DNA of 23,399 nucleotides, taken from a virus. Its lineage: Duplodnaviria > Heunggongvirae > Uroviricota > Caudoviricetes. The translations under genes were made by a program, and so were the position numbers. The stretch is from positions 153,598-176,996 of the IMG/VR virus record IMGVR_UViG_3300043313_001192, one strand, 5' to 3'. The notes beneath the pieces were generated by a model. It saw only the letters and a list, made by a program, of their open reading frames with translations. It was not told where the DNA came from and made no database searches. Below, one piece after another: positions 5,954-22,162 of the stretch. Within the stretch, counting starts at the first letter, position 1. Each line of letters opens with the position of its first letter.

Positions 5954-8900
5954 CTAGATCAAGAACCGCAGAATGCGCGACAGCTCGGCCGAGATCTGGG
6001 GCTGGGAGAGGACGTCACCTCCGGCCATGAACTCAGAGATCTTGCCCCCGGCTTCGGCTAGATGCTCAGGGTCGAGACGCTGCTCGGCGCGCTTGTACAA
6101 GTCCTGCATCAGGCCCTGGAGGTCGGGGGGCAGGTCGGAGAACTTGTACTTCTCGTTGAGGTCACCGAAGACCAGCGGCAGGTTGGCCACCGCCTCAGCC
6201 AGGTTGCCGTAGCCCTCGCGCAGAGTCTTGACCGCACCCTCGTCCTCGGTGTTCTTCGCGATCTGGTCGACCAGGTCGAGCACACCCTTGGCTGCCTGCT
6301 GGGCGGCCTCGGTGTCACCCTGGTTGGCCGCCTGCTGGACCTCGTCGAGTCCTTCGACCGCTTGCTGGGTCCCGGCCTCACCCTGCAGATCCTTCTTCAG
6401 CTCGGCGATCACCATCCGGAACCGACCCTTCTCATCGCGCGGGTGGTTGCCGGGGTCCCACGGCGAGCCGTCGGGGTAACGGCCACCGGCGGCGAGCAGA
6501 CTGATCCCGTCCAGGGTCTCGTCCGAGGCGCGCAGGATCAGCGGGATGCAGGCCCCACCGGCGATCAGCGCCATCCGTGCGGCGAGATCCTCGACCTCAC
6601 CGGCCACGTCCTGGACCGGGGTGCTCAGCGCGGCCCACGACTCCGGGATCAGGTCGGTCTTGCCGAGCGCGCGGGCGCGCTTCTTGATGTGGCGGCGGAC
6701 CTTGGCCTTGTCGCCCTCCTTGGCCCGGCCGTAGGCACGGATGGCGTTCTTCAGGTCGCCCACCGTGGCGATCGGGTAAGAGCCGTCCGGCAGCGCCTGG
6801 CCCTTCTTGGACATCTCCTTGCGCTTGTCGGTGCCGATGTCGCGGAACAGCTCCTCCCCACCGCTCATCAGTGCTGCCATCCGCTCGCGTGCGGCAGCAG
6901 CCTCCGGCGAGCGCAGCGTGACGAACTTGTTCAGCGCCGCCGCGCGAGCCGCGTCCAGCCGGGCCTGGTACTCCGCACGGACCGGGTCCATCCGGGCCAG
7001 CGCGGCGGCGCGGGCCTGAGACAGTGCTTCGCGCTGCGGGGTCTCCAAGGCGTCGACCCGCTCGATCAACCTGTCCAGCGGCGCCGCGTCGGCATCGCTG
7101 CGGATCCGGGCCAACACCGACGTGCCCGCCGCGACCAACGCGTAGACATGTCCGGAGGCCACCCGAGCACGCACGGTGGGGAAGCCGGGCACGTTGACCT
7201 GGCAGATCGCGACCATCTCCAACCGCCCGTTGATTGGACGCCAGTCTCCGGACGGCGCCGCGGCGCGGACCGCCCGGACCTGCTCGGCGTTGATGCTGGG
7301 GCGCATCGCACCGGCCACCCAGATGCCGTAGGCGTCCTCACCGGCGTGCACGTCGCAGAACGCCGAGGCGGTGTCGTCGTAGTGCTTGACCGCCATCGCC
7401 GCGTCGGACTCCAGCGGAGCGTGTCCACCGGCCAGGGTGATCTGCCCGACCGGGACGTCCTTGCCCTCCTCGGTGCGCAGTAGCCCGGTGTGGAAGTAGG
7501 CGTAGTTCGACCGGCTCCGGGGCGGCCGGGTGGAGAACGGGAGCCCGATGTGCTCGGTGTCCCAGGTCGCCACGTGTCCGTAGACCCGACCGTCGTCGAG
7601 CACGGTCAGCGGCGTCTCCTGCTTCAGTCCCGGATCCTCGAACCACTCCTGGGGCGGGTGAATGGGGATGCCCGCTGCGGTCAACGCCGAGCGAACCATC
7701 TCCTCGGTCTCGGCCTCCGTGACGGGAGTTCCGATGTAGGTTCCGTCGGCAACCATGGGCTCTTCCTCCTCCTGGCCTTCCTCTAGCTCGATGCGTACTT
7801 CCTGGAATGCGGGCTTGGCGACGAGCGTCGCGCCCATCACCCGCCCATTGGTGACAGTCATGTCGTCGGCGACGATCCGCACGATGTCGGGGCTCTCGCC
7901 CTCGCCCGGCTCACGCTCGACCGACTCAGGGCTGCGAGCCTCGGCCTCGAAGTTGTCGAGGTCCACCGAGACGCCGCGCAGGAACTTGTGCCGGACCAGC
8001 CGCTCGGCCTCCTGGCCGTACGGCCCGACGTCGAAGACACCACGGGCGTTGACCAGCGAACCGTCCTCGGAGCGCTCCATCGAGTCGATCCGGCCGACGA
8101 TCACCGAGTCGTCGTGGCCCTCGGCGGTCTTGATCTGCCACATCAGCGGCAGCGGCAGGTCGCGAGTGGTCAGCGAGAGCGGTGCGAAGCTGCGCCCGTC
8201 GCCAGACTTGATCCCGATCGGGGCCAGCACCGGGATCACGAACGGCGAGCCGGACAGCTCGGTGGGGACCTGGTCGGCCCGCTCGGGTGCCTCGACACCG
8301 GCGATCAGCGTGTTCGCACCGGCCAACAGCGCCGAGTAGGCGATCACCTCGTCAGTGCTCAGCAGGTGCACGTCGAAGAGCTGGCTGCGCTCGGACGCCG
8401 AGCCGCGCCGCCCGACGTTGCGCCGGTCACCGGGCCACTCGCCGGTCATCAGGTGGTGCAGGCTGGCGCAGTAGCCCTCGCTCATTCCTGGCTTGGGCAT
8501 GTACTTCTTCAGGTGCCGGTTGCACCGGGTCCAGTCGCCAGGGGTGTTCCAGCGGACCTTGGCGGTACCGCCGGTGCCGACCGTCCAGTACTTCTTCAGC
8601 CGGTCCACGTTGGCGACATCGTTGGGGGTGTCGGCGATGCCGGGGATGCCTGCGGCGAGGATCTCGACGACTTCGCCGTACTCGCCCCAGATGGCGGCGG
8701 CCGACGCGGCCACTGACGCTGCGGCGTCCTTGGCCTCCTGCTCGGCCTCGGCCTTGCCCTCGGGCGTCTGGTAGAACGCCTGCACCTGCGTCATCGTGTC
8801 GTTGAAGGTGGCCTCGTCGAGGGAGACGATCGCGGGTGGTGAGCTGGACTGCAGCTGACGCAGCACCTTGGGATCGTTGACCCAGCCGGTCGCGGTGTAG

Positions 8901-11422
8901 CGCAGCACCTGGGCCTGGTTGCCGGTGGTGCTGGCCGGGATCATCGCCAGCAGCTCCAGCACCGCTTCCTGGTTGGCCTCATCCACCTCGGCCATGTAGA
9001 CCGGCGCGACGTCGGACTGGGCAGGGTCTGTGATGGGCTGACCAGTGCCTCCTGCGTCCGGCAGCACCGGCACCTCGGCCGGTTCGTCCTTCTTCTTCCG
9101 GGCCGCAGCGGTCAGCGAGCCGCGCTTGTAGCCAGGCAGGATCTTGCGGTAGATCCGGTCGATGGCGTCGCGCGCGCTCTTGCCACCGGCATGGATCTTC
9201 TCCAGCCGACGCTTGTAGTCGGCATCGGCCTTGGCCTGCTCACGCTCCCACCGCGCCTTGGACTCCTTGTCGAGCGCCTTCTGGGCCTGGTCACGCGCCT
9301 TCTTCCCGGCGCGCTCTTTCTCGATGAAGTTGGGGTAGTTCGCGATGACCGCCTTGATCGCCTCGGCGTCCATCGGTGGCAGCAGCGACTTCAGCAGCGC
9401 CTTGGGCGTGTGCGCAGTAGCGCGCGGAATGGCCTGGATCTTGTCGAGGTCGACCACACCCGGCTGCACCCTGGTGCTCTTGGCCGGGACCCACTCGGAG
9501 GATCCGTCGTCGTCGTAGGTGACCTGGACCTTCTGGGTGGCCGGGTCGATCTTGGCCACGGTGCCGGTCCGGGCCTGCGGACCGACGGCGATCTTGGAGC
9601 CGGACCTGGCGAACCGGCCGCCAGCGTCACGGACCTGCTTCTTGGCGTTGGCCGCGCGCTCCTCAGGGGTGTAGCCGTCGTCCTCGGCGAAGACCTGGGG
9701 GCGGTAGTCGAAGGTGACCCCGGAGGCGGTGACCACCGCGACCCGGTTCAGCATCTCGTTGTCGAGACCAGGGATGGCCTCGGCCATCACCAGAGCCTCA
9801 CCAGGGTCGACCTCGCGCAGGTCGACCGGCTGGTCGGGAAAGATCGACTGTGCCCGGACCACTTCGCGGGCGGTGTCATCGTCCAGCTCGATGATCTGGG
9901 CAGGGGAGCCGAGGTGGGTCTGCTCCCAGGTTCGGGTGCTCGGCTCGAAGCGGTAGAACATCGCGCCGTCACTGACGTAGAGCTGGTCCACGGTCAGCGA
10001 GTCGTCGCCGGTGTAGGCGGCGTAGTAGGTCAGCGGGTCGTCTTCCTCGGTGCCGCGCCGCTCCCAGAACGCCGTCTTGAGGTCGTCGTCCGCGATCAGC
10101 TCCTCCAGCGGGTCGCTGAGGTCGAACTCCTCCCAGTCGACACCGTGGATCTCAGCTGCTGCCTGGACCGGGGACGGGGGCGCCTCGCCGCCGTCGGCGA
10201 CCTGGGCGTCCCAGTACTGCTTGGTCTCCGCGATCTTGGCGTCGATCTCGGTCTTGTTCGCGTAGTAGTCGGCCAGCGCCGCCTGCTTGTGCAGGGTGTC
10301 GTCGACGGCCTTGCCGCAGATCTCGCACGTGTCCGGGTCATCGACGGTCTCGGAGAAGTAGTGCGCGTCGTCGGGCGTGATGTCGGCCTGGTCGTAGTCG
10401 ACGGCGTCGGGCTGGTGCCGCTCGTCCATCTCGCCGGTGCCGCAGTAGGTGCAGACCTCAGGGTTGCTGGTCACCGGGGAGTACACGTGCGGAGCCTCAC
10501 CGTCGAAGCTCTCTCCCTCGGGAACCTCCTCTTCCTCGACGTCCACGTTGGCGTCGGGGTCGTAGCCCGCGGCGACCAGCGCTTCCGCCTCCACCCGACG
10601 GATGGTCCGGGTGGCCCAGTCACGTCCGGCGTCACCGCCTAGTGCTGAGTAGGTCAGGGCGCGCGCCGAGGGGTACCGAGCCGAGGACTTCGAGCCGCCA
10701 CAGCTGCACGACCCGTTGCCGTCGCACTCGGAGGTGTGCGGGCCGTTGATCACCGAGAACGCGCGTGGCAGCAGCCGCAGCGTGTCGTAGTCGACCTCCT
10801 CGTCCTCGGCCAGCTTCTGCCCGATCGTGGTCGCGGCGGTCGTCGAGTCCTGGGTCTCGGTGGCCTGGGCGACCTTGGCGGCCCAGACCTTCCCGGCGTC
10901 ACCGCCCCAGGAGGCCCAGACCGTGGGGTCGACCTTCTCCTTGGGGTGCCGAGAGAAGTAGGTGTGCATCTGCTGGACGACCTGCGGGTGGATGGCAGCA
11001 CCGCTGGCCAGGTGCTCAGCACGGGCAATGTCGGTGCGGTCGAGGTCAGCCTCGACGCTGCTGCGTGCTGCCTCTCGCACCGTGGCCGGTGGCACCAGGC
11101 TGGTTCCGGCGGCGATCACCGGCAGTTCGATCTCACGCTGGTAGGTGGTGGTCCAGCGCAGTGCCTGTCGGGCGCTGGCCCGGACCGGCTCGGGGACGGT
11201 GAAGGTGCGCAGCGGATCGACGTCGACCGCCAGCGCCGAGCGAGCGAGCAGGGTGGCGCGGCGCTCTTCGGTGCTGCGCCCGGAAGGGACGAAGCCGCCA
11301 TGGCTGGTCAGCTCAGCAGCGCTGAAGACGTCGGTGACGTCACCACTCTTGAGATCGACGGCGACTGCTGACCCGGCGTGCTCGAAGAACATCCAGCCAC
11401 TGCTCGCACCCAGCGTTCGCAT
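5954..11422 (-). CDS. 1822-aa capsid maturation protease polyprotein (two protease-like domains plus accessory modules)
   Basis: Uninterrupted ORF between cargo genes and MCP, carrying GHD/GVSVD/LVAKPAF and GH/SGDWR/VNVPGFP motif sets. Confidence 0.88.
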   Translation of the reverse strand: MRTLGASSGWMFFEHAGSAVAVDLKSGDVTDVFSAAELTSHGGFVPSGRSTEERRATLLARSALAVDVDPLRTFTVPEPVRASARQALRWTTTYQREIELPVIAAGTSLVPPATVREAARSSVEADLDRTDIARAEHLASGAAIHPQVVQQMHTYFSRHPKEKVDPTVWASWGGDAGKVWAAKVAQATETQDSTTAATTIGQKLAEDEEVDYDTLRLLPRAFSVINGPHTSECDGNGSCSCGGSKSSARYPSARALTYSALGGDAGRDWATRTIRRVEAEALVAAGYDPDANVDVEEEEVPEGESFDGEAPHVYSPVTSNPEVCTYCGTGEMDERHQPDAVDYDQADITPDDAHYFSETVDDPDTCEICGKAVDDTLHKQAALADYYANKTEIDAKIAETKQYWDAQVADGGEAPPSPVQAAAEIHGVDWEEFDLSDPLEELIADDDLKTAFWERRGTEEDDPLTYYAAYTGDDSLTVDQLYVSDGAMFYRFEPSTRTWEQTHLGSPAQIIELDDDTAREVVRAQSIFPDQPVDLREVDPGEALVMAEAIPGLDNEMLNRVAVVTASGVTFDYRPQVFAEDDGYTPEERAANAKKQVRDAGGRFARSGSKIAVGPQARTGTVAKIDPATQKVQVTYDDDGSSEWVPAKSTRVQPGVVDLDKIQAIPRATAHTPKALLKSLLPPMDAEAIKAVIANYPNFIEKERAGKKARDQAQKALDKESKARWEREQAKADADYKRRLEKIHAGGKSARDAIDRIYRKILPGYKRGSLTAAARKKKDEPAEVPVLPDAGGTGQPITDPAQSDVAPVYMAEVDEANQEAVLELLAMIPASTTGNQAQVLRYTATGWVNDPKVLRQLQSSSPPAIVSLDEATFNDTMTQVQAFYQTPEGKAEAEQEAKDAAASVAASAAAIWGEYGEVVEILAAGIPGIADTPNDVANVDRLKKYWTVGTGGTAKVRWNTPGDWTRCNRHLKKYMPKPGMSEGYCASLHHLMTGEWPGDRRNVGRRGSASERSQLFDVHLLSTDEVIAYSALLAGANTLIAGVEAPERADQVPTELSGSPFVIPVLAPIGIKSGDGRSFAPLSLTTRDLPLPLMWQIKTAEGHDDSVIVGRIDSMERSEDGSLVNARGVFDVGPYGQEAERLVRHKFLRGVSVDLDNFEAEARSPESVEREPGEGESPDIVRIVADDMTVTNGRVMGATLVAKPAFQEVRIELEEGQEEEEPMVADGTYIGTPVTEAETEEMVRSALTAAGIPIHPPQEWFEDPGLKQETPLTVLDDGRVYGHVATWDTEHIGLPFSTRPPRSRSNYAYFHTGLLRTEEGKDVPVGQITLAGGHAPLESDAAMAVKHYDDTASAFCDVHAGEDAYGIWVAGAMRPSINAEQVRAVRAAAPSGDWRPINGRLEMVAICQVNVPGFPTVRARVASGHVYALVAAGTSVLARIRSDADAAPLDRLIERVDALETPQREALSQARAAALARMDPVRAEYQARLDAARAAALNKFVTLRSPEAAAARERMAALMSGGEELFRDIGTDKRKEMSKKGQALPDGSYPIATVGDLKNAIRAYGRAKEGDKAKVRRHIKKRARALGKTDLIPESWAALSTPVQDVAGEVEDLAARMALIAGGACIPLILRASDETLDGISLLAAGGRYPDGSPWDPGNHPRDEKGRFRMVIAELKKDLQGEAGTQQAVEGLDEVQQAANQGDTEAAQQAAKGVLDLVDQIAKNTEDEGAVKTLREGYGNLAEAVANLPLVFGDLNEKYKFSDLPPDLQGLMQDLYKRAEQRLDPEHLAEAGGKISEFMAGGDVLSQPQISAELSRILRFLI
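6539..6563. repeat. 25-bp direct repeat, copy 2 (in protease polyprotein)
   Basis: 24/25 identical to 4271..4295; encodes AGGACIPL. Confidence 0.9.
7150..7665 (-). other. Second prohead-protease-like domain of the 1822-aa protein (approximate bounds)
   Basis: GHVATWD (His1283, 7574-7576), SGDWR (Ser1391, 7250-7252), closing VNVPGFP analogous to the V..PA motif. Confidence 0.55.
7795..8245 (-). other. HK97/assemblin-fold prohead protease domain of the 1822-aa protein (approximate bounds)
   Basis: LPLM.Q...GHD...VGRI (His1103, 8114-8116), GVSVD (Ser1152, 7967-7969), GATLVAKPAF. Confidence 0.85.
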
Positions 11423-11428
11423 GCCAGC

Positions 11429-11434
11429 AGTTTA
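11429..11434 (-). promoter_or_regulatory. Putative -10 (TAAACT) for a leaderless transcript of the protease polyprotein
   Basis: TAAACT-GCTGGC-ATG: TAnnnT exactly 6 nt before ATG 11422, with no Shine-Dalgarno. Confidence 0.5.
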
Positions 11435-11442
11435 GGTGTACA
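11430..11442. repeat. 13-bp motif, copy 2 (inverted relative to 5402..5414)
   Basis: + strand GTTTAGGTGTACA. Confidence 0.6.
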
Positions 11443-11613
11443 TCAGGCCGAAGGAGCGGGCTCCTTCGGCTCGGTGCCTGCGGTTTCGTCAGTAGGCGCC
11501 GCGGCAGCGCCCGTGGACTCGCCGAAGAACGAGGTCACCTGCCCGGAGACACGGGCGGCGAACTGTTCGGGTGACTCACCAGGCTTCTGCGTCATGGTCA
11601 GCACTTGTGGCAT
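11443..11613 (-). CDS. 56-aa hypothetical protein; start revised to 11613
   Basis: GGAGATTCCTCATG gives MPQVLTMTQKPGESPEQFAARV...; overlaps the upstream gene by 38 nt. Confidence 0.6.
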   Translation of the reverse strand: MPQVLTMTQKPGESPEQFAARVSGQVTSFFGESTGAAAAPTDETAGTEPKEPAPSA

Positions 11614-11893
11614 GAGGAATCTCCAATCCTGCATAGTCGAAGTAGGGCAGCAGGTCATCGAGGAACCGGCCGTACTGGGGGTCGCCGGGCGGGACCACGG
11701 ACAGGTCCCCGACCTTGGCCACCGCGGGCAGCAGGTCGTGCGGCACCCAGGTCAGGTAGATGGTGCCGTCGGTCTCGCGCCACGAGTCCGGCGACGCTCC
11801 GGCCAGATAGGTCAGGTAGGAGGCGTAGCCCTCCTGGGTCAGGTGCTGCGGGCAGGGCAGGTCAGTCCGTGGGGGCGGCGGTGGGTGCGGCAT
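11576..11893 (-). CDS. 105-aa hypothetical protein, paralog of 11862..12242; start revised to 11893
   Basis: GGGAGGTGCCCGATG; 30/80 ungapped identity with the upstream paralog. Confidence 0.8.
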   Translation of the reverse strand: MPHPPPPPRTDLPCPQHLTQEGYASYLTYLAGASPDSWRETDGTIYLTWVPHDLLPAVAKVGDLSVVPPGDPQYGRFLDDLLPYFDYAGLEIPHATSADHDAEAW

Positions 11894-12242
11894 CGGGCAC
11901 CTCCCTGGTCGGGCGTGGCTCGGGTGCCACCGGCGTCGGCTCCATGAAGTCATACTCCGGCACGACGTGGTTCAGCCAGCGCGCGTAGGTCGGGCTGTCC
12001 TGGGTGATGTAGGTGGGTGAGTCCACCATCCCCACGTCGGGCGCCATCGAGGCAGGCATCCGGCTCAGGTAGATCGTCCCGTCCTGGTCACGCCAGGCAT
12101 CGACCGGGTCCGCGGCCAGGAACTCCAGCCATTCGGCGTGCTCCTCCGGGGTCCCACCCTCGGGCGGCTGCAGGTCAGACCGGGGCTTCGGTGGCGGCGG
12201 GATCTTGGTCGGCGGCTGGGGCTGCTGGGGCTGCTCCGTCAT
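11862..12242 (-). CDS. 126-aa hypothetical protein, paralog of 11576..11893
   Basis: GAGGAGGTGCCAGATG; shared PR.DL and D.WR..DGTIYL motifs. Confidence 0.8.
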   Translation of the reverse strand: MTEQPQQPQPPTKIPPPPKPRSDLQPPEGGTPEEHAEWLEFLAADPVDAWRDQDGTIYLSRMPASMAPDVGMVDSPTYITQDSPTYARWLNHVVPEYDFMEPTPVAPEPRPTREVPDAAPTAAPTD

Positions 12243-12405
12243 CTGGCACCTCCTCGGTACTCACGACTGCGCTGGGGAACATGGCGCGCCATTCCTCGGG
12301 CGTCATCCTGATCTTGTCGAACGCCGGGTCGTTGGGCGGGTTGCCCTCGTAGTTCAGCATCATCAAGAACTCGACCGCAGTCAGCGACTCCACATCGACA
12401 GCCAT
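12175..12405 (-). CDS. 76-aa hypothetical protein; ATG at 12405
   Basis: TGATG overlap with the giant-gene stop; GGAG/GAGG upstream; overlaps the next gene by 68 nt. Confidence 0.6.
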   Translation of the reverse strand: MAVDVESLTAVEFLMMLNYEGNPPNDPAFDKIRMTPEEWRAMFPSAVVSTEEVPDDGAAPAAPAADQDPAATEAPV

Positions 12406-15400
12406 CACTCATCCTCATCTCCAGGAGGGATTGCACCAGGGGGCAGTGGCGGCGGCGGAGCCTCCGGGGACACTCCCGCCCACTCGAACGAGTCGTAGAA
12501 CTCATCGCGCTCCCGTACGGCCTCGGCGCTGTAGTCGATCTGCTCCGGGCGAGAGACGAGGTCAGGCTCGGTCTCGTCGACCACGTCGGCGGCAGCGGCG
12601 ATCGGGGCAGCAGGAGCAGGAGGCAGCGTGGGGCCAGGGTGCTCGGGGACGCCGGTGTACTCGACCAGCTCGTCGAAGGAGTGCGGCAGGTCCAGCTCGT
12701 TCTCCAGGTCCCACCAGACCGAGGGCGAGACGTAGTGGTCCCTGGCGGTGCCCCACCCGTCGTTGATGCGCTGGCCCGCCGCCTTCCAGACGCTGATCTT
12801 GAACTTGTCGAACTCCGCCTGGCTCATGCCCTTCTTCGGACGCACCGGGCGGGTGCCCTTGCTGCTCTTCTTCTTGTAGGCCACCAGCGTGCCCAGGAAC
12901 TGCCGCGCCGCGTTGGTGGCCACGTAGGTGCGCAGGTCGTGGTTGATCAGGTCGGGGATGCCCGTCGACTCACGCAGGTAGTTGATCGACTGGTCGGCGG
13001 TGACGTCGCCGAAGATGAACTCGTTGCGCCCCTTGCCCTTGCTCCACTTCTCCAACGCCGCCTGCAGCCGGGGCTCCTTGATCGTGTAGTCGTTGTCGAT
13101 CCCGGACTTGCCCATGAAGTCGAACCGCACCGAGTTCTGGTTGAACCGCAGGTGCTTGGGCATCAGCGACGTCCCGCCGATCACCTGCTCCAGCTTCTTG
13201 CGCTTCTGGCTCTTGGTGCGGTTCTTCCCCTTCGCGTTGTCCACCCGCATGCCGGTCTCGATCAGGGTGGCCACCAGCGCCGCGACCGGGTCGTCCATCG
13301 CCTCGTTCAGCGCCTTCTCGCGCAGATCCGCGTGCACCTTGTGCAGCGCCTTCTCGCGCTGGAACTTCTGGGCGTTGCCGGTCTTGCTGTGCTTGTAGTC
13401 GTAGATGTTCGTGGGTGTGTCGTTGCCCGGCATGATGACCTTCATCAGCAGGGTGCCGTCCTGAGAGGCCCAGTTGCGGTTGTACCAGACCCCGATGGCG
13501 TCCTTGGACGGGCCGGTGAAGTCGGGGTTCGCCTCCTTCATCGCCGCCATCACCGAGTCCCAGTTCTGGTCGCCCGGTCTGATCTCGGTCATGTCGAGCT
13601 GGCCGTGGGCCTCGCTCTTGTGCTTGCTGGCCCGCTCGATCTGAACCACGTTCGGCAGCGGCTGCTCCTGCTTGGGTGCTGGTGCTCCCAGCGCCGAGGA
13701 GATCTGGTTCTGGACAGGTACCCGCTTCTTGACGACGACCGGGCTCTTCATCATCTCGGGCAGCGTGTGGTTCTCGAAGTTGTCGAAGAACTCGAAGATC
13801 GCCTGCCCGGCTTCGGTCTTCCTGTCTCCCATTTCCCGCAGCGTGATCCCGTCAGCACGAGCCGGACCCCAGTGCCCGTGCAGCAGGGCGCTTCCACCCT
13901 TGGTGTAGACAGACTGCTTCCAGTTCTCCCCGTCGCGCCCCTCCTCGGGCTCCGCCAGCATCCGGCGCATCGCGGCGTACGCGGCGTACCCCTGTGCCCA
14001 CATCTCGGTGGTCCCGGCAGCGCCGTTGTGGGTAGTTGCCCCCTCGTCCTGGTTGCGGTAGTACCAGTTCAGCAAGGTCGCGTCCGGGGCATCACCGTAG
14101 GAGGCGATCTCCTGCAGCTTGGCGCGCAGCGCCAGGAACTCAGGGTCGCCGTCGCTGTAGAACCCGCGCCTGCCCTGGGAAACAGAGACCTCACCGATCA
14201 TCGAGTCCAGCGCGTGACCCAGCTCGTGGCTGACCACGTTGGTGACGCCGTCACCCCACTGGAAGGTCGAGTCGGCGACCACGACGTTGTTCTCGTGAGG
14301 GATGTAGTGCCCGGTGGTCTGCTCAGGTGTGCGGTCGTCAGCTCCATCGTGAGGAGGGTTGACCCAATCTGGCGACGTCACGATCGAGGCGTAGTTCGTG
14401 CTGGCCTCGGTGACGTTGCTGCGCGTGCGGTGGATCCCGCCGCCGTAGGCGGCGTACATCGAGTTCAGCGCAGCGGCGACGTTGGGGGTGATCTCCGAGA
14501 CGCCTTCGTTGAACGCCATGTCGGCCACGACCGTCTGGTCGGTGCCCTCACCAGTGCGATCGTCGACAGTCAGGTTGGACGAGAGCGTGTTCTCCCCATC
14601 CCAGGTGAGCAGAGTCTTCTTGCCGCCGGTCAGGTCGGAGACCAGCTCGGCGTCCCCGTTCTTGACCGCCTCGTCAAGATCCAGGTCAGTCAGGGTGCTG
14701 TTCAGGAACCCGAAGCGATCCTGGTCTGAAGCCGCGCGGATCGCGTCAGCGAGTGCGGGGGAGACGCCGCCGTGTGCACGCTGGTACTCCGCAGCCTGGT
14801 TGACGATGTGGGCGTAGACACCGTGCCCGGCGGCACTGCTGCTGTTCGCCAGCTGGAGGGCGATCTGGTCGACCAGTGCGATCGACTCTTTCTCAGCAGG
14901 CTTGCCGGTGTCCTGAACCAGACGGAAGTCCATCATCGACTTGTCGGCCTTCTGCCGCATCTCGACCGGTGGATAGGCGTCCATGCTGAGCAGGTCGCCC
15001 ATCTCGTGCTTGTCGAGCTGCTCACGCAGCACGTCTTCCAGAGGTGCTGGGTCGAGGCCCGCACTGCGGAGCTGGTCGAACATCGTCTTGGCTGCGGTGA
15101 TGTCGTCGGTCAGCCGCCGAGCGGACTCGGTGGCCGCCACCACCTCGAAGTCGTGCATCTTGCTGCGGACCTCCGGGTCGCGCAGTGACATCGCATGCTC
15201 CGCGGTCGAGGCGACCTCGGGCATCATGTCGATGAACTCGTCGGTGTTCTCGATCGTGTTGCCCGGACGCATCGCGCGTTCAAGGTTGCTGCCCTGGATC
15301 TTGGCTGATCCGGCACGCTCCATGGGTGTGGACAACCAGTCGCTGGCGTAGAGCTTGTCCACCTCGGCCTTGCCCTCGGAGGCGGCCGAGACGACCTGCT

Positions 15401-18400
15401 CACCGAGGATCTGGTTGATGTCACCGCTGGCCAGATCCGGGTCCACCTGGGCGTCGAAGTTGGCCCACAGATCGAGCACGTCCTGGACGGCCTCGTCGTT
15501 GTAGCGACCCAGCACCGTGCTGACGTGCTCGGGTGTGAGCTGGTCGAAGCCGCCACGCCTCATCGAGAACATCATCCGGGTCTCGTCGGCGAACTTCGTC
15601 TCGGCTTCCAGCAACCGGTTGTTGAGCAGCTGGTCAGCGATGCTGCCCTTCTCGACGTTCTTGGAGAGCTTCTCGTTGATCTGGTGCAGCGACTCGAAGT
15701 AGTCGGTGATGGCCTGACTGCGCTTGTCCTGGAACTCGGGGCTGACTACCAGGTCGCGGATGGCAGCGGGGTCGGAGGCACTGAGGCGAAAGGGCGCGTC
15801 GCCACCACCTGCCTCTCCAGGGGTCTCACCCTGTGACGGGCCTTGCCCGCCGTCCAGCTCGTCAGCCACTCGACGCAGTTCGTCGACGGCCGAGCTGGGA
15901 TCGCTGAGTCCGAAGTTGCCTTCGAGGTAGTCGGCCAGCCTGCGCAGATCCTCCGACAGCTCGGTGTAGGGACCCTCGCTGGTGATCCGGCCGCGGATCA
16001 GGCCGAGCTGGGCGTTGGCCTCGTCGGTCAGCTCGGTCCAGCCGACCGGGCCGTTGTCGCCCTCGGTCTCGTTCTCGGTCTCGATCGCGCTCTCCACGTC
16101 GGAGAGAGCGCTCTGGACCTCGGCTACTTGGGCGGCTTCTGGCCCGCTGCCTGCTGGCCCTTCGGGCGCTTGCTCTTCGGGAGGAACACCGGGTTCGGCT
16201 TCTCCACCTTCCGGGCTTGGGCTCTCCAGTCGCCTGGCCCCCGGAACTCCTTCTTCTGGTCCTGTGCCACCGGCTTGCTCCTCTGCCACGTGTGGGGGCC
16301 AGTATCCCAGCCCGTCCTTGAAGTTGTACGCGCCACCCTCGGATCCGGAGTACGCACCGACCGCCTCGACGTCGTCGAGGTTGTCGAAGACCAGCACCGG
16401 GTCGATCTCGTAGTTGCCGGTGTCGTCGTTGCGGAACACGCCGAGGTGGGCCTGCTCCGCCCACAGGGGGCTGTCCTCGTCGGCGCCGAACTGGGCCAGC
16501 GCCTGCTCCATGCCAGCGTCGAAGTCCTCCTGGCTGGACCCGATCGGGACATTGACGGTGTCAGTACCGGGCGGGCGGAAGGTGATCGCGTAGGCGTCCT
16601 CGTCGCCGGTGATCGCCTGCCCGGTGTGGGCGTCGATGGTGACGCCGCCCCACTCCTCCTGGACCGAGTCCCAGGCGGTGCTCTTGACCTCGTCCCAGGT
16701 CTGGCCCTGCAGCGCGTCGGGTGCTGCGGTGTTCTCCAGGATGCCGTCCAACCGGTCGCGGCCCTTGAGCGCCAGCGCGGTGTACTCCTCCGGGGAGACC
16801 TCGCGGGTACGCGGGGTCTCGGGGTTGGAGAACTGGCTCGGGGTGAGCGGCTCCACCTCGGGCATCCCGGCAGCGTCCAGTGCCTCACGCGCGGTGCCCG
16901 CTCCCTGCTGCGGAGCCTCCGCGACGGCAGGAGCCTGCTCGGGTGCTCCCTCGGGAGCCGTGGCCGGACCGGTGACACCACCCATGGCGTCGAGCCGGTC
17001 GGCGTGCTCGCGGGCTCGGGCGGAGGGAGCGTCGGTGGGTGTGTCGGCCCCGTCGTAGGCGTCCGCGGCGTCGCGGAACTTCTGCGCCGCGGCGGCGTTG
17101 TCGCCGTTCTTGATGTCGGCGCGGGCGCCGTCGACCAGGCTGCGGACCTCGTCGCTGCGGGACAGACCGCTCAGGAGGTTGCCGACGTCACTGGTCCGGC
17201 GGAGCGCAGTGTTCTGGCTGGAGTAGCCGCGCGCGCCCTCTTCCCCGGCGGCGCGTGCGAGTCGGTGCGCCATCTGGCTGGCGACACCCTTGTCCGAAGG
17301 CTTCTCGAACTGGTCTGCTCCCAGGCCATCGACGTGGTCCGCCAGCCGTGAGGCGTCCGCACCATTGATCTCCTCGCCGTTCTTGACCGCCTCGGTGATC
17401 CGGCTGATCTCCGGGTCGGCCCCTTCGACTCCCGCCACGTGGTCGAGCATCTTCTTCTGCTTCGACGTCGAGCGGGCAGCGACCCTGCCGGTCCCGGCAG
17501 TGCGGACTGCGCGCTCCTCGGAGCGGGGGTCCTCGACCGCCTCGGCGGGCATGTCCTTGTCACTGTCGAGCGCGACGTTCATCATCGCGCCGTCGGCGAC
17601 GTTCACGTACTGGTTGGTGCCTGCGGTCCTCGCCGCGTCGCTGGCGTCCTGCTCCTCGTCGAAGACACCGACCCGCGCCATCCGGTAGCGGCCGTCGTCC
17701 TCGTCGTGCCAGATCGAGACGCCGTCGAAGCTGCTGCCCTCGGTCTCGGCCAGGAAGTCGGTGATCTCCTCGGCAGTGGGCTCGGCGTCATACTCCGAGA
17801 CGGTGGCGTGGTCCACCACGTAGAAGCCCTCGTCCACCTGCTGGTCACCCTGCATCACCAGCGCCGAGCCGTCATCAGCCTGGACCGCATCGGAGACCGC
17901 GTCGTCGACCTTGTCGACCACCGGGTCCACACCTTCCGGCGTCACGTCCGGAGCGCCCTCGGGACGCTCCTGGCGGGAGACCGGCTGCGACGCGCCACCG
18001 AAGAGGTCAGTGCCCGCGTCGACCTTGGCCTGCAGCACCTGCAGCAACGGTGGCCTGTTCTGGCCACGCCCACCCTGGGGGTTGATGCCGGTGAGCATCG
18101 CGTGCAGCTTGCTGCCCTTCAGGTTCGCGTTGACGTTGGTGTTGACGACCCTGGACAGCTCGCCCACCGCGCTGAGCAGTGCCTGGGCGTCCTCGGCCTC
18201 TACTGCGGCGGTGACACCGTCCAGGTACTTGCGCAGCTGCCTGCGCTGGGTGGGGTCCTTGGCCGCAGCCATCGCCTCCTCGCCGAACCCCTGCAGGATC
18301 TTGTTCATCTGCTGTGCTTCGGACACCGCGGCAGGCGTCTCTTCAGGCGGCACCTCAGCCCCCTGCTCCGGGCCGGTCCCGGTCTCCTGAACGGCCTGCT

Positions 18401-20576
18401 CGACGGCCTGGGTGTCGTTGGAGGGGATCGGGTCCTCGGTGTTGTCGTTGACGATGGTCTGGCCGTCCTCCTCACGGACGGTGGCTCCCTCGGGCGTGAT
18501 CTTCTCGCTCGGATTGTCCGGGTTCTGCGGTGCCTCGCCGCCCATCTCCGGATCCGGTGTGGGTGCCTCGGGCGGCTCGGGTGCCGGGTCGCTGGGCTCG
18601 CGGAAGTACCCGGCCGAGGCCATGAACAGCTGGTCCCGCTTGTCCAGCAGGTCCTGGTCCTCGGCACTGAGTTCCTGCCCGGCGGCCCTGGTCTGGTCGC
18701 GCTTGTTGTAGAGCGCGTCGATGTCGAACAGCTGGTCCTGGAAGGCGGCGTCGGTGGACATCGCGGCCTGGATGGCGTTCGCGTCGCCGTCGTCGCGGAT
18801 CACCTGGGAGACCGAGGTGGCGCCCATCTCATCGGTGAGCAGGGCGGCCTGCTCGCGGGTCGGCACGTAGTTGTTGGTGTTGGACTCCGACTCACCGGGA
18901 TAGACCTCGCTGGTCGGGCCGTGGTGACGCCTCAGCTTGTTCGCGGTGACGCGGGAGGACTTGCCGTTGTACCAGTACACCTTGGTGGTGTTCGCGTTCG
19001 GCTCCATGTAGGAGATGTAGCCCTCTTCGCCGTTGGGTCCCTGCACGGCGTCGCCGATCCCCAGCCTCTGGCCGTTGGCGTCCTTCTTCTGGCGCAGGTG
19101 GATGGGGACGACGTCGAAGAGCCCGGCCCCGCCACCGGTCCGCGAGCGCCTCAGCGCTCCTGGGGTGGCGTACCGCTCGCGCACGGCGGTGATGTACTCC
19201 TCGGTGAACGACTTCACCAAGGACTTGCTGGCCTCGTCCTGCCCCTCCAGCGCGAGCCGCTGGAACAGTGTGCTCTGCTGGTCCTCGCTGGCCATCTCGA
19301 TCGACTTGGCGTCCACCGGATGGTCGTAGTAGGGGACCGGGACCTTGCTCTTGGTCCCGTCGGCGTTCTTGACGGTCTTGGTGTAACCCTTCTCCATCAG
19401 CGGGTCGAGGTCGCGGACGTAGATGTGCTTCTTCTGGGCGCTGTCGGTGTAGAGACGGACGATCGGACCGGTGAACGCGGCCCGTCCCCTCTTGGTCGCG
19501 TCGACGTCCACGATGTGGCCGACCCGGACCACGGTCTCCCCGGTCTTGTCGACGTGGTGTCGGTCACCGGGAGCGACCTGCTGGGCCTGCTTGGAGCCGA
19601 CCAGTCGATCCCGTGCAGCGCCGAGCTTCGCGTAGGCCGAGCGCCAGTACTCGGGCAGCCCTTCGGTCTGGGGCTCGGCGACGGTGTCGCGGACCTCGGC
19701 CTTGACCGGCTGCTCCAGCTGGCCCTCGACCAGCGAGCCGGAGGTGATGTCCCAGACCTTGGCGTCCTCGGCGTAGCTCTTGGCCAGCTCGTTCTGCGCC
19801 GCCTCCTCACGGACCTCGGGCTGGTTGCCCTGCATCCGCCCCTGACTGGTCTCGATGTCCTCGACGGTCTTGTCCCCGAGGGAGTGCCGGGCGGTGTAGC
19901 TGTTCTTGATGACGTCGTCGAGGTTCGCCAGCCGGGTGGCCTCCTCCTTGGGCAGGTTGGCCTTGGCCTCCTCGTAGTCCTCACCGTCGGCGAACCCCTT
20001 GCCGCGCTCGTCCCCGACTGCCTCGCCGACCTCGCGGAACAGGTCGATCGCCTTCTGCTTGTCGGCGACCGACTTCGGGTCGCGCGGGTTGGGCGGCAGC
20101 ATCGCCAGCCGCTGGGCCTCGGCCATCTTCTTGGCCTCTTTGCCCATGCCCATCTTCTTCAGGGAGTTGATGGCGGTGGTGACACCGACGTTCTCCTGGT
20201 TCTGCAAGATGCCGACGTGGCTGCCCTTGCCCGCGAGCTGAGCCTTGACGGTGCGGACCTGGACCTTGTCGTGGGGCACCTTGACGTAGCCGTTCGCGTC
20301 GACCCGTGGGTCAGCACCAGGGGTGGTGCCTTGGATCTTGACCAGCAGGTTGCCGTCCCGGTCGATGCCCGCGACCCGGCCCGACGCAGTCCCGCCACCG
20401 GGCAGGTCGAAGGTGACGAAGGAGAAGGTCCGGATGAACCGCCCGTTCTCGTCGCGGGGGTGCTTGAGCGGGTTCCACTTCCGGCCCATGGAGTCGATGA
20501 CGACGATGAACTCGTCGCGGTGCCCCAGGTTCATGAACTCGGTGTTGGCGTACCGAAAGATCTGCGGGGTGGTCAT
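12405..20576 (-). CDS. 2723-aa polyvalent protein: HPRD-GRF/SH3-like N-terminus, repeated alpha/beta domain, HEXXH zincin, C-terminal topoisomerase IB-like domain
   Basis: 8.2-kb uninterrupted ORF; ATGA overlap upstream and TGATG overlap downstream; recognisable catalytic motifs. Confidence 0.9.
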   Translation of the reverse strand: MTTPQIFRYANTEFMNLGHRDEFIVVIDSMGRKWNPLKHPRDENGRFIRTFSFVTFDLPGGGTASGRVAGIDRDGNLLVKIQGTTPGADPRVDANGYVKVPHDKVQVRTVKAQLAGKGSHVGILQNQENVGVTTAINSLKKMGMGKEAKKMAEAQRLAMLPPNPRDPKSVADKQKAIDLFREVGEAVGDERGKGFADGEDYEEAKANLPKEEATRLANLDDVIKNSYTARHSLGDKTVEDIETSQGRMQGNQPEVREEAAQNELAKSYAEDAKVWDITSGSLVEGQLEQPVKAEVRDTVAEPQTEGLPEYWRSAYAKLGAARDRLVGSKQAQQVAPGDRHHVDKTGETVVRVGHIVDVDATKRGRAAFTGPIVRLYTDSAQKKHIYVRDLDPLMEKGYTKTVKNADGTKSKVPVPYYDHPVDAKSIEMASEDQQSTLFQRLALEGQDEASKSLVKSFTEEYITAVRERYATPGALRRSRTGGGAGLFDVVPIHLRQKKDANGQRLGIGDAVQGPNGEEGYISYMEPNANTTKVYWYNGKSSRVTANKLRRHHGPTSEVYPGESESNTNNYVPTREQAALLTDEMGATSVSQVIRDDGDANAIQAAMSTDAAFQDQLFDIDALYNKRDQTRAAGQELSAEDQDLLDKRDQLFMASAGYFREPSDPAPEPPEAPTPDPEMGGEAPQNPDNPSEKITPEGATVREEDGQTIVNDNTEDPIPSNDTQAVEQAVQETGTGPEQGAEVPPEETPAAVSEAQQMNKILQGFGEEAMAAAKDPTQRRQLRKYLDGVTAAVEAEDAQALLSAVGELSRVVNTNVNANLKGSKLHAMLTGINPQGGRGQNRPPLLQVLQAKVDAGTDLFGGASQPVSRQERPEGAPDVTPEGVDPVVDKVDDAVSDAVQADDGSALVMQGDQQVDEGFYVVDHATVSEYDAEPTAEEITDFLAETEGSSFDGVSIWHDEDDGRYRMARVGVFDEEQDASDAARTAGTNQYVNVADGAMMNVALDSDKDMPAEAVEDPRSEERAVRTAGTGRVAARSTSKQKKMLDHVAGVEGADPEISRITEAVKNGEEINGADASRLADHVDGLGADQFEKPSDKGVASQMAHRLARAAGEEGARGYSSQNTALRRTSDVGNLLSGLSRSDEVRSLVDGARADIKNGDNAAAAQKFRDAADAYDGADTPTDAPSARAREHADRLDAMGGVTGPATAPEGAPEQAPAVAEAPQQGAGTAREALDAAGMPEVEPLTPSQFSNPETPRTREVSPEEYTALALKGRDRLDGILENTAAPDALQGQTWDEVKSTAWDSVQEEWGGVTIDAHTGQAITGDEDAYAITFRPPGTDTVNVPIGSSQEDFDAGMEQALAQFGADEDSPLWAEQAHLGVFRNDDTGNYEIDPVLVFDNLDDVEAVGAYSGSEGGAYNFKDGLGYWPPHVAEEQAGGTGPEEGVPGARRLESPSPEGGEAEPGVPPEEQAPEGPAGSGPEAAQVAEVQSALSDVESAIETENETEGDNGPVGWTELTDEANAQLGLIRGRITSEGPYTELSEDLRRLADYLEGNFGLSDPSSAVDELRRVADELDGGQGPSQGETPGEAGGGDAPFRLSASDPAAIRDLVVSPEFQDKRSQAITDYFESLHQINEKLSKNVEKGSIADQLLNNRLLEAETKFADETRMMFSMRRGGFDQLTPEHVSTVLGRYNDEAVQDVLDLWANFDAQVDPDLASGDINQILGEQVVSAASEGKAEVDKLYASDWLSTPMERAGSAKIQGSNLERAMRPGNTIENTDEFIDMMPEVASTAEHAMSLRDPEVRSKMHDFEVVAATESARRLTDDITAAKTMFDQLRSAGLDPAPLEDVLREQLDKHEMGDLLSMDAYPPVEMRQKADKSMMDFRLVQDTGKPAEKESIALVDQIALQLANSSSAAGHGVYAHIVNQAAEYQRAHGGVSPALADAIRAASDQDRFGFLNSTLTDLDLDEAVKNGDAELVSDLTGGKKTLLTWDGENTLSSNLTVDDRTGEGTDQTVVADMAFNEGVSEITPNVAAALNSMYAAYGGGIHRTRSNVTEASTNYASIVTSPDWVNPPHDGADDRTPEQTTGHYIPHENNVVVADSTFQWGDGVTNVVSHELGHALDSMIGEVSVSQGRRGFYSDGDPEFLALRAKLQEIASYGDAPDATLLNWYYRNQDEGATTHNGAAGTTEMWAQGYAAYAAMRRMLAEPEEGRDGENWKQSVYTKGGSALLHGHWGPARADGITLREMGDRKTEAGQAIFEFFDNFENHTLPEMMKSPVVVKKRVPVQNQISSALGAPAPKQEQPLPNVVQIERASKHKSEAHGQLDMTEIRPGDQNWDSVMAAMKEANPDFTGPSKDAIGVWYNRNWASQDGTLLMKVIMPGNDTPTNIYDYKHSKTGNAQKFQREKALHKVHADLREKALNEAMDDPVAALVATLIETGMRVDNAKGKNRTKSQKRKKLEQVIGGTSLMPKHLRFNQNSVRFDFMGKSGIDNDYTIKEPRLQAALEKWSKGKGRNEFIFGDVTADQSINYLRESTGIPDLINHDLRTYVATNAARQFLGTLVAYKKKSSKGTRPVRPKKGMSQAEFDKFKISVWKAAGQRINDGWGTARDHYVSPSVWWDLENELDLPHSFDELVEYTGVPEHPGPTLPPAPAAPIAAAADVVDETEPDLVSRPEQIDYSAEAVRERDEFYDSFEWAGVSPEAPPPPLPPGAIPPGDEDE
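12690..13560 (-). other. Type IB DNA topoisomerase-like domain (approximate bounds)
   Basis: VW...Y...H....KFQR leader; TGMRVDN (R2444, 13245-13247); FDFMGKSG (K2490, 13107-13109); HDLRTYVAT (R2549, 12930-12932); ARDHYVSP (Y2615, 12732-12734). Confidence 0.82.
13900..14450 (-). other. Zincin metallopeptidase domain, lethal-factor/Pro-Pro-endopeptidase-like (approximate bounds)
   Basis: G.Y......VVV...HELGHALD (aa 2117-2121, 14214-14228), SDGDPEF, and TEMWAQGYAAY (Glu2191, 14004-14006). Confidence 0.78.
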
Positions 20577-22162
20577 GGCAGCAGGTCCCGGTCGTCGGTG
20601 CGCGCGGAGAGGTCGCCCTGGGCCAGCCGGATCAGGCTGTTCACCCGCGCCTGGGCGATCAGGTCGCGCGGCAAGGGTGGGCGGCTCTGCGGCGCGGTCA
20701 TGGTGTACTCCCTGACCCCGCGCACATAGGCCGCGCGCAGGGCGGTGTCGGAGATGGTGGAGAGCTGGGTCTTGAGGGCGAAGAGGTCCGGAACGTCATT
20801 GCCGTTCTGGGCTGGGACCGCAGTGACGTCTTGAGCTGGCGCAGCTGCCTGAGCTGCCTGCGCAGCTGTGGCCGATGTCGACTGACGCAGCCAGTGCTGC
20901 GGGATCATGTGCTGCAGGCTCAGCTCGCGGGCGCGCTTGGCCAGCCGACGCCGGGTGAAGACCCGCGACAACTCGGCTTCGATCTGGTCGGCGGCCTCGC
21001 AGGCGGTGGCCAGCGACTCAGCATCGTCGACGGCGAGCCGAGGCGCGGTGCCGAAGACGTCGATGAGCAGGTGGTCGCCCTCCAGCGGAGGGTCCTCGAT
21101 CGCCTCGGTCATCGCCTTGGTGAGTGCGGCCACAAACTCCGCGTCGAGTCCCATGTCATCGCCGGTGAGCAGGTTGGGCTCGGTACCAGACGCTGGCCCA
21201 GTCACCAGGTAGCCGAAGTGCGCGGAACCATCGCCGTTGAGCTCGATTATCGGAGCGTCGGCGTCGTCGGTCGCGTGAGACATGATCGAAGCGTCGGAGT
21301 CGATGTTCGCGTGGGACCGTGCCTTCTTCTCCTCCCACTCAGCTACCGCGGCGCACGCTTTGGCTCGTGATCCCGCGTTCTCGTGCTGAACGCCAGGGAA
21401 GTTCAGGTCACCGGTCGCGCACGCCTTCTTCACGGCGTTGACTGCCGTGGCGATCGCGTGTCCTTGCTTCATGCCCTTCTCTTGGAGGTGCTTGGCGATC
21501 CGCTTGATGTACTTGGGCAGACCGCCGACCTTCTCGACCCAGTTGAACTCGTTGTCGTCGATGGCCATGACGTCAGAGAACTCGACGTCGGGAAGGTCTT
21601 CGTCCGAGTCAGGACCCTCGGGGATGGTCGACTCGGCGGACGGTCCGAGCGGGTACTCGGTGTGCTCCTCACCGTCCCAGACCGCGAGTCGGTCGAAGAT
21701 GACCTCCTCGGGGAGGTCGTCGTCGGGGACCGGCTCCTCCAGGTCGTAGCCGAGGGTGACGTGCGGGGTGTAGCCGGGGAACTGCTGGACGGCCCCGGTG
21801 CCCTCGCGCAACTCCGGGGCCGCCAGCAGGTTCTCGCGGAGGGCAGGCAGCTCGTCACCGCCGAGGTGCACCACCTGGGCGTTCTCGTCGCCGAGCAGCC
21901 CCTGGGACTCGACCTGGCTGGTGACCGGCCCCGTGCTGCTCTCCGCTACGCCGCGCACTGCGTCCTGGACCGCCTCCATGTCCAGAGCCGGGTTCTCCTC
22001 AGGCTTGCCCAGCCAGAGCACCGTGGCGTGCTTGGGCTCGGAGACGTCCCCGATGTGGTGGATCGGCTCGGTGGCGGTGGGGATCGCCACGATGCAGCGC
22101 CCGGAGTTCTTGCGCTCCTCGAAGTCGTCGGGCTCATCAGGAGTGATCGGGATCTCGGTCAT
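20573..22162 (-). CDS. 529-aa protein: N-terminal 2H phosphoesterase (LigT/Acb1-like) plus two small helical modules
   Basis: HxT motifs HATV (22022-22030) and PHVTL (21755-21763); ATGA overlaps at both ends. Confidence 0.85.
   Translation of the reverse strand: MTEIPITPDEPDDFEERKNSGRCIVAIPTATEPIHHIGDVSEPKHATVLWLGKPEENPALDMEAVQDAVRGVAESSTGPVTSQVESQGLLGDENAQVVHLGGDELPALRENLLAAPELREGTGAVQQFPGYTPHVTLGYDLEEPVPDDDLPEEVIFDRLAVWDGEEHTEYPLGPSAESTIPEGPDSDEDLPDVEFSDVMAIDDNEFNWVEKVGGLPKYIKRIAKHLQEKGMKQGHAIATAVNAVKKACATGDLNFPGVQHENAGSRAKACAAVAEWEEKKARSHANIDSDASIMSHATDDADAPIIELNGDGSAHFGYLVTGPASGTEPNLLTGDDMGLDAEFVAALTKAMTEAIEDPPLEGDHLLIDVFGTAPRLAVDDAESLATACEAADQIEAELSRVFTRRRLAKRARELSLQHMIPQHWLRQSTSATAAQAAQAAAPAQDVTAVPAQNGNDVPDLFALKTQLSTISDTALRAAYVRGVREYTMTAPQSRPPLPRDLIAQARVNSLIRLAQGDLSARTDDRDLLP

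Follow-up and report, generated by a model that had tools for sequence, protein, structure and literature searches.

Two giant proteins between portal and capsid share a conserved peptide

The IMG/VR virus record IMGVR_UViG_3300043313_001192 (Duplodnaviria; Heunggongvirae; Uroviricota; Caudoviricetes) is a contig of 176,996 bases with 66.6% G+C, and its last 23.4 kb (positions 153,598 to 176,996; 23,399 nucleotides) form the window analysed here. Every gene of the window lies on the minus strand, and all coordinates below are window coordinates on that strand. The gene order is portal, a 529-amino-acid (aa) 2H phosphoesterase/Acb1-like protein, the giant protein P0001, small open reading frames (ORFs), the giant protein P0002 and a 682-aa major capsid protein, followed by a conserved unknown gene, the major tail protein and the head-tail adaptor. 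P0001 (12405–20576; 2,723 aa) is a post-portal giant of the polyvalent type and a putative cargo, and P0002 (5954–11422; 1,822 aa) is a predicted head-maturation-protease giant. Both carry a short, strongly conserved peptide, which we call the header and whose distribution and possible role are the subject of this study.

The header is present in three copies. Copy 1, WNPLKHPRDENGRF, lies at 20436–20477 (P0001 aa 34–47; profile match E = 1.6e-13), and copy 3, WDPGNHPRDEKGRF, at 6419–6460 (P0002 aa 1655–1668); both are of type A, W[ND]PxxHPRDxxGRF. Copy 2, at 9611–9673 (P0002 aa 584–604), is of type B, in which a short helix, YTPEERAANAKK, precedes QVRDAGGRF. This core spans 9611–9637 (P0002 aa 596–604), and an AlphaFold2 (AF2) model of P0002 573–700 places the helix at model residues 14–22, followed by the motif. 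A preliminary description of this DNA had reported the three peptides in the two giants, and minus-strand translation together with a regular-expression scan recovered each of them at its position. Across the whole 177-kb genome, the regular expression and four profile hidden Markov models (HMMs), run over 1,683 six-frame ORFs, found these three header sites only. At the composition of long ORFs, chance would supply about 0.17 occurrences of RD..GRF, 5e-4 of HPRD..GRF and 5e-8 of W[ND]P..HPRD..GRF, and RD..GRF arose at least once in just 51 of 20,000 shuffles of the two giants. The header copies are far from chance.

The header recurs near the N-terminus of large phage proteins

A codon-degenerate DNA pattern for W[ND]PxxHPRxxxGRF, scanned over IMG/VR, returned 116 loci, all in frame within long ORFs (median about 900 aa, up to more than 4,200 aa). 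These loci range from 47 to 77% G+C (median 69%), and the motif is kept at the amino-acid level across that range; the target of selection is therefore the peptide, not just the DNA. A profile built from 49 headers matched 864 protein clusters at E ≤ 1e-3 in a search of 1.84 billion representative proteins. The consensus of 414 copies reads [WF][DN][EP]xxHPR[DG]xxG[RK][FW], often then x[ED]xGG, with eight near-invariant positions over 14 residues; in type B, a basic helix precedes Q-x-R-D-x-x-G-[RK]-[FW]. In all, a header is some 14–20 residues long. By tblastn against 50,697 named phages, the type A header matched in Gilgamesh only, and site 2 of P0002, the type B copy, matched in a group of Microbacterium and Arthrobacter phages and DSL-LC01.

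Header positions are biased toward the N-terminus. The motif lies within 100 aa of the upstream stop in 90 of the 116 loci, and the first copy lies within the first 100 aa in 129 of 179 proteins (within 25 aa in 44 proteins). Several carriers start MAWNPSLHPRG... or MGWNSELHPR..., with the motif running from residue 3. Because these proteins begin with the header, nothing upstream of it is there to be removed.

Gene neighbourhoods place the header beside the portal. The gene directly upstream of a header gene encodes a portal or portal-MuF protein in 7 of the 10 ORFs tested, and other neighbourhoods run terminase-portal-MuF-giant or portal-...-giant. Two ORFs upstream of header genes (L008 487–2880; L028 1032–3086) match DUF6582 (E = 1e-18 to 8e-21) and show no portal domain that can be recognised; such proteins could be portals that have diverged, or a different head protein.

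Headers precede variable domains in a cassette arrangement

The domains that accompany the header are ADP-ribosyltransferases (ARTs; ADPrib_exo_Tox and ART-PolyVal), Zeta toxin, NUDIX, FtsK, Acb1, PI3/4-kinase, MuF and portal. The preliminary description had linked HPRxxxGRF peptides to phage proteins that are head-associated or toxin-like; the 116 in-frame loci, the 864 clusters and the ART, Zeta, NUDIX, portal and MuF companions bear this out. In portal-effector and MuF-effector fusions, the header sits between the structural domain and the effector (ART or NUDIX), 15–20 aa after MuF. Whether in a giant or in a protein of its own, every ART-PolyVal unit has a header in front of it, and at L012/L042, L067 and L120 neighbouring genes each carry a header of their own.

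Some giants hold many copies: 16 in P0054 (5,313 aa), at least 14 in P0046 (7,334 aa), eight in P0053, seven in P0044 and six in P0043, the last of which has no Pfam match at all. In these multi-header giants the copies occupy interdomain linkers, a median of 281 aa apart. Header, optional barrel and variable domain together form a cassette, which stands alone, follows a portal or MuF domain, or is strung together with others.

Searches for an established family gave no counterpart. Neither Pfam nor PHROGs holds a family that covers the header motif, profile searches of the PDB found no solved structure containing it and returned marginal matches only, an ESM Atlas feature search gave no usable match, and text searches of about 8.4 million papers for header strings found no description. 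The motif-alone PDB profile search produced a single result, ribosomal protein bS16 (RDGRFIEKLG, E = 0.36), which we rejected as not significant. Three biochemical ideas were likewise dropped: AT-hook-like DNA binding, as the net charge of the motif is about zero; metal binding, as its histidines are not conserved in number; and an acid-labile Asp-Pro bond, as many copies read WDE or WNP.

P0001 couples an N-terminal header to polyvalent cargo

P0001 runs from header and barrel through about 2,000 aa without a family match to a zincin-like peptidase and then a topoisomerase IB core; the start of its gene and the stop of the preceding one overlap in ATGA. The zincin-like metallopeptidase (aa 2079–2206; 13959–14342) has HELGH at aa 2117 and matches phrog_4415, 'peptidase' (E = 2.5e-7). 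The topoisomerase IB catalytic core (aa 2401–2568; 12873–13376) matches PF01028 at E = 1.5e-12, with 47.8 bits against a cut-off of 23.7. Polyvalent proteins are recognised by at least two unrelated enzymatic or effector domains and by a location among the portal-terminase head-packaging (late) genes; P0001 has the peptidase and the topoisomerase, and lies among those genes. The topoisomerase core is of the eukaryote/poxvirus type and stands C-terminal to a zincin in a giant that is presumed to be packaged in the head. The closest relatives of P0001 (P0003, P0004 and P0006) align with its first ~1,600 aa only, which identifies the last ~1,100 aa as an added block.

The order portal, giant, protease giant, capsid recurs in six annotated phages: Microbacterium phages Cece, Zooman and Pumpernickel, Arthrobacter phage Mimi, Actinomycetia phage DSL-LC01 and Streptomyces phage Gilgamesh. 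All six syntenic giants have a header and barrel near the N-terminus, and BLASTP of the P0001 body against them found no similarity beyond the header. The flavour of this N-terminal header differs between lineages, being type A in the window lineage and the Streptomyces phages and type B in the Microbacterium, Arthrobacter and DSL-LC01 phages. That the flavours replace each other at the same N-terminus suggests that type A and type B headers do the same job.

P0002 carries headers at two conserved sites

The prohead (head maturation) protease region of P0002 covers aa about 1065–1518 (6869–8230) and matches phrog_18402, phrog_21470 and phrog_859; aa 1241–1441 match phrog_18402, 'head maturation protease', at E = 2.9e-57, and Pfam protease families gave no match in P0002. 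This family match and the position of the gene between portal and capsid point to a prohead protease. There are 24 homologues of 1,100–2,200 aa, and in Cece and DSL-LC01 the genes syntenic with P0002 are annotated 'capsid maturation protease'. Behind copy 3 follows a C-terminal helical, scaffold-like domain (aa 1669–1822; 5957–6418), directly upstream of the capsid gene. PHROGs returned nothing informative for this domain or for the unassigned parts of both giants; with no family match to draw on, we infer the scaffold role.

Both sites recur across the protease family. Site 2 is of type B in all 23 homologous protease giants, with YTPEER, Q, R, G and F invariant, and in an alignment of 20 homologues its A is invariant along with Y, T, P, E, E, R, Q, R, G and F. 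Of the 23, 18 have a type A-like header at site 3, reading [WFY]xPxx[HQ]PRDxxG[RKQ]F and then a conserved helix start, RxV[IL]A. By this conservation, both header sites of P0002 are old and fixed. In DSL-LC01 the protease giant is split into three genes (L002 13954–18873), all annotated 'capsid maturation protease'. The third encodes a 183-aa helical protein just before the capsid gene, with header 3 at residues 15–32; for this protein a scaffold-like role is more probable than a protease role.

Ferritin-like domains (PF00210) are fused to four P0002 homologues (P0202, P0203, P0209 and P0211), which recalls encapsulin cargo. Another ferritin-like domain occurs in a 1,400-aa post-portal protein next to P0044.

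A KOW-like small barrel follows two of the three copies

Copies 1 and 2 are each followed by a small barrel. Barrel 1, a KOW/Tudor-type (SH3-like) five-stranded barrel, covers P0001 aa 53–108 (20253–20420). In the AF2 model of P0001 22–125, the mean predicted local distance difference test (pLDDT) score is 75, rising to 85–90 over most of the barrel, with strands at model residues 32–87. Barrel 2, KOW-like, covers P0002 aa 610–652 (9467–9595), and the model of P0002 573–700 gives it five strands (mean pLDDT 70; barrel 77–82). In these barrel-linked copies the motif itself is predicted with pLDDT 81–90.

The preliminary description had seen copies 1 and 2 continue in parallel. Direct BLASTP of the P0001 module against the P0002 site-2 module was not significant (E = 0.19–0.4), and hhalign of the two module profiles gave a probability of 92.8% and E = 3.9e-7 over 62 columns spanning motif and barrel. 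The homology of the two modules is therefore visible only at the profile level, where the comparison covers both motif and barrel and shows that the parallel continuation is real.

The same description had called the barrel SH3-like, and the fold class stands. Two independent AF2 models show the five-stranded, strongly bent antiparallel small barrel of ~50–60 residues, and KOW-like is the best description that the models, Foldseek and the profile comparisons offer. The top Foldseek matches in the PDB, all weak (E ≥ 0.009), were Spt5 KOW, LIN9 and PHF Tudor, Hva1 and BPL_C, and the top PDB profile match of barrel 2 was the NusG KOW domain (1nz9), also weak at E = 0.032. The Pfam match of barrel 1 to BPL_C (PF02237; E = 5.5e-5, 23.4 bits against a cut-off of 21) spans just 27 residues. 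ESM Atlas fold matches reached template-modelling (TM) scores of about 0.5–0.6, and small uncharacterised viral proteins were also among the barrel matches. These matches are too weak for membership in the KOW (PF00467), BPL_C or Tudor family. Elsewhere a barrel follows only ~21% of header copies (87 of 417); it is therefore the header that stays constant, with the barrel as an optional addition.

The header as a candidate loading tag for the prohead interior

We propose that a domain bearing the header is destined for the inside of the prohead, with the header serving as a loading tag, probably followed by proteolytic processing, a reading for which we see the chances as about evenly balanced. 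In this scheme the header would belong to the domain after it and mark that domain for the inside of the prohead, giving three cassettes here: P0001, the internal segment of P0002 and the scaffold-like C-terminal domain of P0002. The header would dock these proteins to a common partner during prohead assembly, supplying the loading function that a MuF or portal fusion gives in cis elsewhere. Processing of the loaded proteins might then fall to the P0002 prohead protease and the P0001 zincin, as in the 'tag, load, clip' scheme of T4. Many-header giants would be in-frame fusions of successive tagged cargo genes.

Several observations argue for a loading tag. The N-terminal bias, with proteins that start at the header, and the gene position next to the portal are those of a tag. 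Prohead residence is all that a protease, a scaffold-like domain and unrelated effectors share, and eight near-invariant positions in 14 residues are more readily explained by a docking epitope than by a simple cleavage site. In this genome the sole three copies sit in two giants between the portal and capsid genes. Beyond it, the argument draws on how widespread the header is (116 IMG/VR loci, 864 clusters), on its place between portal or MuF and effector domains in fusions, and on a conserved header with variable cargo among syntenic giants. Cassette behaviour points the same way, as seen in stand-alone and embedded ART-PolyVal units, in the DSL-LC01 split and in neighbouring header genes.

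The lack of MuF enters the same argument. Phage_Mu_F (PF04233) has no match in P0001 or P0002 at E ≤ 0.1, nor anywhere in the 177-kb genome at E ≤ 1, so that the earlier remark that no MuF domain is visible is verified by profile search for both giants and for the whole genome. The preliminary description had gone further and taken the motif for a prohead/portal-targeting tag that replaces MuF. Targeting fits the N-terminal bias and the gene position; replacement does not carry over to other phages, where the header often lies directly after MuF or portal and thus accompanies MuF.

In a wider version, the header would serve a large group of tailed phages, mostly high in G+C and of the actinophage type, as a universal and transferable signal for capsid loading. 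Any carrier would then enter the prohead, and many-header giants would be held at many points, to be released and injected later. We put this version forward tentatively and lean against it.

Several points weigh against the loading-tag reading. For a virion location, the nearest published case is a giant Microbacterium phage protein, itself only inferred to be virion-associated (PMC7302621). The header is near-invariant across phages with sequence-unrelated portal families (Mu-type, HK97-type and SPP1-type), so the receptor is not obvious, and docking on a lineage-specific structural protein becomes awkward. A loading tag would also be redundant where MuF or a portal is fused in cis. Up to about 16 regularly spaced copies at domain junctions look polyprotein-like and fit a processing site equally well, and the enrichment of HExxH peptidases in many-copy proteins fits such a site. 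Residues 73–100 of the Milano baseplate hub gp26 (8fqc chain C1), KRRGKSVKKQNRDASGRFAFSGG, closely resemble P0002 site 2, KKQVRDAGGRFARSGS, and 9rku (phage 7-7-1) was noted alongside; the match is marginal (E = 0.058–0.26 for 8fqc), and if real it would put the type B motif in a tail protein, outside the head. A complex prediction of the P0001 header and barrel with the major capsid protein gave no verdict (score 0.00), which speaks neither for nor against binding.

Alternative roles for the header

In the main rival reading, the header would chiefly be where the head-maturation protease or zincins recognise or cleave their substrates, with the giants as polyproteins that are cut at each header into individual enzymes. 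The copies flanking parts of P0002 would then be autoprocessing sites, like the R and M sites of herpesvirus assemblin. Up to about 16 copies placed exactly in interdomain linkers at a median of 281 aa, and motifs that flank ART-PolyVal in P0044, are what such a site would produce. HExxH is enriched in proteins with at least four copies (16 of 33 proteins; 0.38 per 1,000 aa), P0001 has its zincin and P0002 its prohead protease, and header 3 lies between protease and scaffold-like domain, where a release site would be expected. The semi-conserved [ED]-x-G-G after GRF can be added, as T4- and phiKZ-type prohead proteases cut after Glu. Processing of polyvalent proteins by zincins and C-terminal assemblin-like peptidases has also been predicted (Iyer et al. 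2017; PMC5512222).

Other features fit a cleavage site poorly. Many proteins start with the motif at residue 3–15, leaving nothing upstream to release, and the eight invariant positions far exceed the needs of known prohead-protease sites. The pLDDT of 81–90 over the motif in barrel-linked copies suits an ordered element better than a floppy site. Within the protease family, type A and type B each keep to a position of their own, which one specificity leaves unexplained. N-terminal headers and the long conserved pattern thus speak against a protease site as the sole role, and we consider it unlikely, if credible, that cleavage is the header's main function.

Another possibility is that header and KOW-like barrel form a nucleic-acid-binding module that tethers cargo to the packaged genome or its end. 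Cargo would then exit together with the DNA, a proposal made for SPP1 gp7, a MuF protein. The nearest barrel folds are those of NusG, Spt5 and L24, the core RDGRFIE resembles the rRNA-binding hairpin of bS16 (E = 0.36, not significant), and a basic helix precedes type B headers. A universal ligand such as DNA would, moreover, explain invariance across unrelated head architectures. However, type A headers and their flanks are near neutral or acidic (for example WDESKHPRGEHGRW then AE...), a barrel accompanies just ~21% of copies, the DNA arrives in the prohead later than the head proteins, and the likeness to nucleic-acid binders is fold-level or not significant. On balance we think such a module improbable.

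Finally, the header might act after injection in the host, for example as a handle for a host chaperone or protease, or be a conserved junction that eases recombinational swapping of cargo, akin to the VENN or PxxxxDPxGL motifs of polymorphic toxins. A conserved header beside hypervariable cargo, the mosaic, cassette-like architecture and near-invariance across diverse phages, which suggests a conserved and possibly host-side partner, would suit this idea, but amino-acid-level conservation over loci of 47–77% G+C points to selection on the peptide, and the header also sits on a protease and a scaffold-like domain without an obvious host role, so that we rate it a long shot.

Relation to known head-cargo systems

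The loading-tag reading has a precedent in the capsid-targeting sequence (CTS) of T4. The CTS is a short peptide on the otherwise unrelated head-internal proteins IPI, IPII, IPIII and Alt, usually N-terminal and tied to processing by the prohead protease. The header is N-terminal in P0001 and in ~72–78% of carriers, and is internal in P0002. It differs from the CTS in having no sequence likeness to it, in being longer and far more conserved across unrelated phages, and in occurring also internally, C-terminally, in multiple copies and on a protease and a scaffold-like domain. Loading and clipping, which in T4 belong to the CTS, would for the header be predictions.

Encapsulin cargo-loading peptides offer a second parallel, in which cargo of many kinds, ferritin-like proteins among them, is docked inside an HK97-fold shell through a short conserved peptide. 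Encapsulin peptides are C-terminal and unrelated in sequence to the header, whose binding to capsid is only hypothetical here. The barrels of KOW, Tudor and BPL_C proteins (NusG/Spt5, Hva1 and biotin ligase) are five-stranded small barrels of the same topology, but they have no counterpart of the preceding header, and the matches to them are weak (E = 0.009–0.03).

Polyvalent proteins share much of the domain repertoire: ART-PolyVal, ADP-ribosyltransferases, Zeta toxin, NUDIX, 2H phosphoesterase, zincins and a C-terminal assemblin-like protease, in the same gene context beside the portal-terminase packaging genes (PMC5512222). That paper does not discuss topoisomerase IB, a text search of it for HPR or GRF found no such motif, and the header is an added punctuation or N-terminal mark that it leaves undefined. 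MuF-fused polymorphic toxins (Jamet et al. 2017; PMC5576092) and actinophage MuF/VIP2 fusions (PMC7302621) likewise combine a head-associated N-terminus with a variable toxin. The header often lies 15–20 aa after MuF or in the gene after MuF, and the present genome differs in having no MuF domain; a term search of the MuF-toxin paper (PMC5576092) found no junction motif. The junction motifs of polymorphic toxins also belong to the closest known systems. The header is of a known kind, that of head-cargo tags and polyvalent proteins, and the header itself, its two flavours, its use in protease giants and its optional KOW-like barrel appear undescribed.

Outside T4, P1 and N4, we know of no simple sequence rule for proteins carried in the head. 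If the loading-tag reading is right, a header shared by the head protease, a scaffold-like domain and hundreds of effectors would provide such a rule, the effectors concerned being ADP-ribosyltransferases, Zeta kinases, NUDIX hydrolases, 2H/Acb1-like phosphoesterases and topoisomerase IB. The loading of giant cargo in MuF-less phages would likewise be explained, and the beads-on-a-string build of polyvalent giants would be that of fused tagged cassettes. The header would be of use, too, as a small and portable tag for capsid loading. Under the wider version, the headers of a genome would list the phage's whole injected 'cargo-ome', and foreign proteins could be brought into phage heads with them. 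The idea is directly testable in cultured Streptomyces and Microbacterium phages.

Genome ends and neighbouring genes

The ends of the contig overlap by 69 bases (1–69 and 176928–176996), leaving 176,927 unique bases; the genome is therefore circular or terminally redundant, and in IMG/VR the contig is classed as complete, with direct terminal repeats. The portal gene (22159–23397; phrog_776, portal, E = 3.1e-71) is cut by the end of the window and contig. It spans the circular junction, and joining the contig ends gives a complete open frame of 579 aa.

Right after the portal lies the gene for the 529-aa 2H phosphoesterase/Acb1-like protein (20573–22162), which matches Pfam 2_5_RNA_ligase2 (E = 7.9e-6) and, weakly, the anti-CBASS (cyclic-oligonucleotide-based antiphage signalling system) protein Acb1 (E = 6e-4). 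Header-module HMMs gave no match in this protein. Acb1 or LigT/2H domains occur elsewhere inside header-bearing giants and protease giants (P0062, P0200 and P0201).

The major capsid protein (3272–5320; 682 aa) matches phrog_777 at E = 1.8e-81. It begins with a conserved helical, delta-like N-terminal segment of ~80 aa, followed by a long acidic stretch rich in E, A and P before an HK97-type core; it has more than 500 relatives in IMG/VR.

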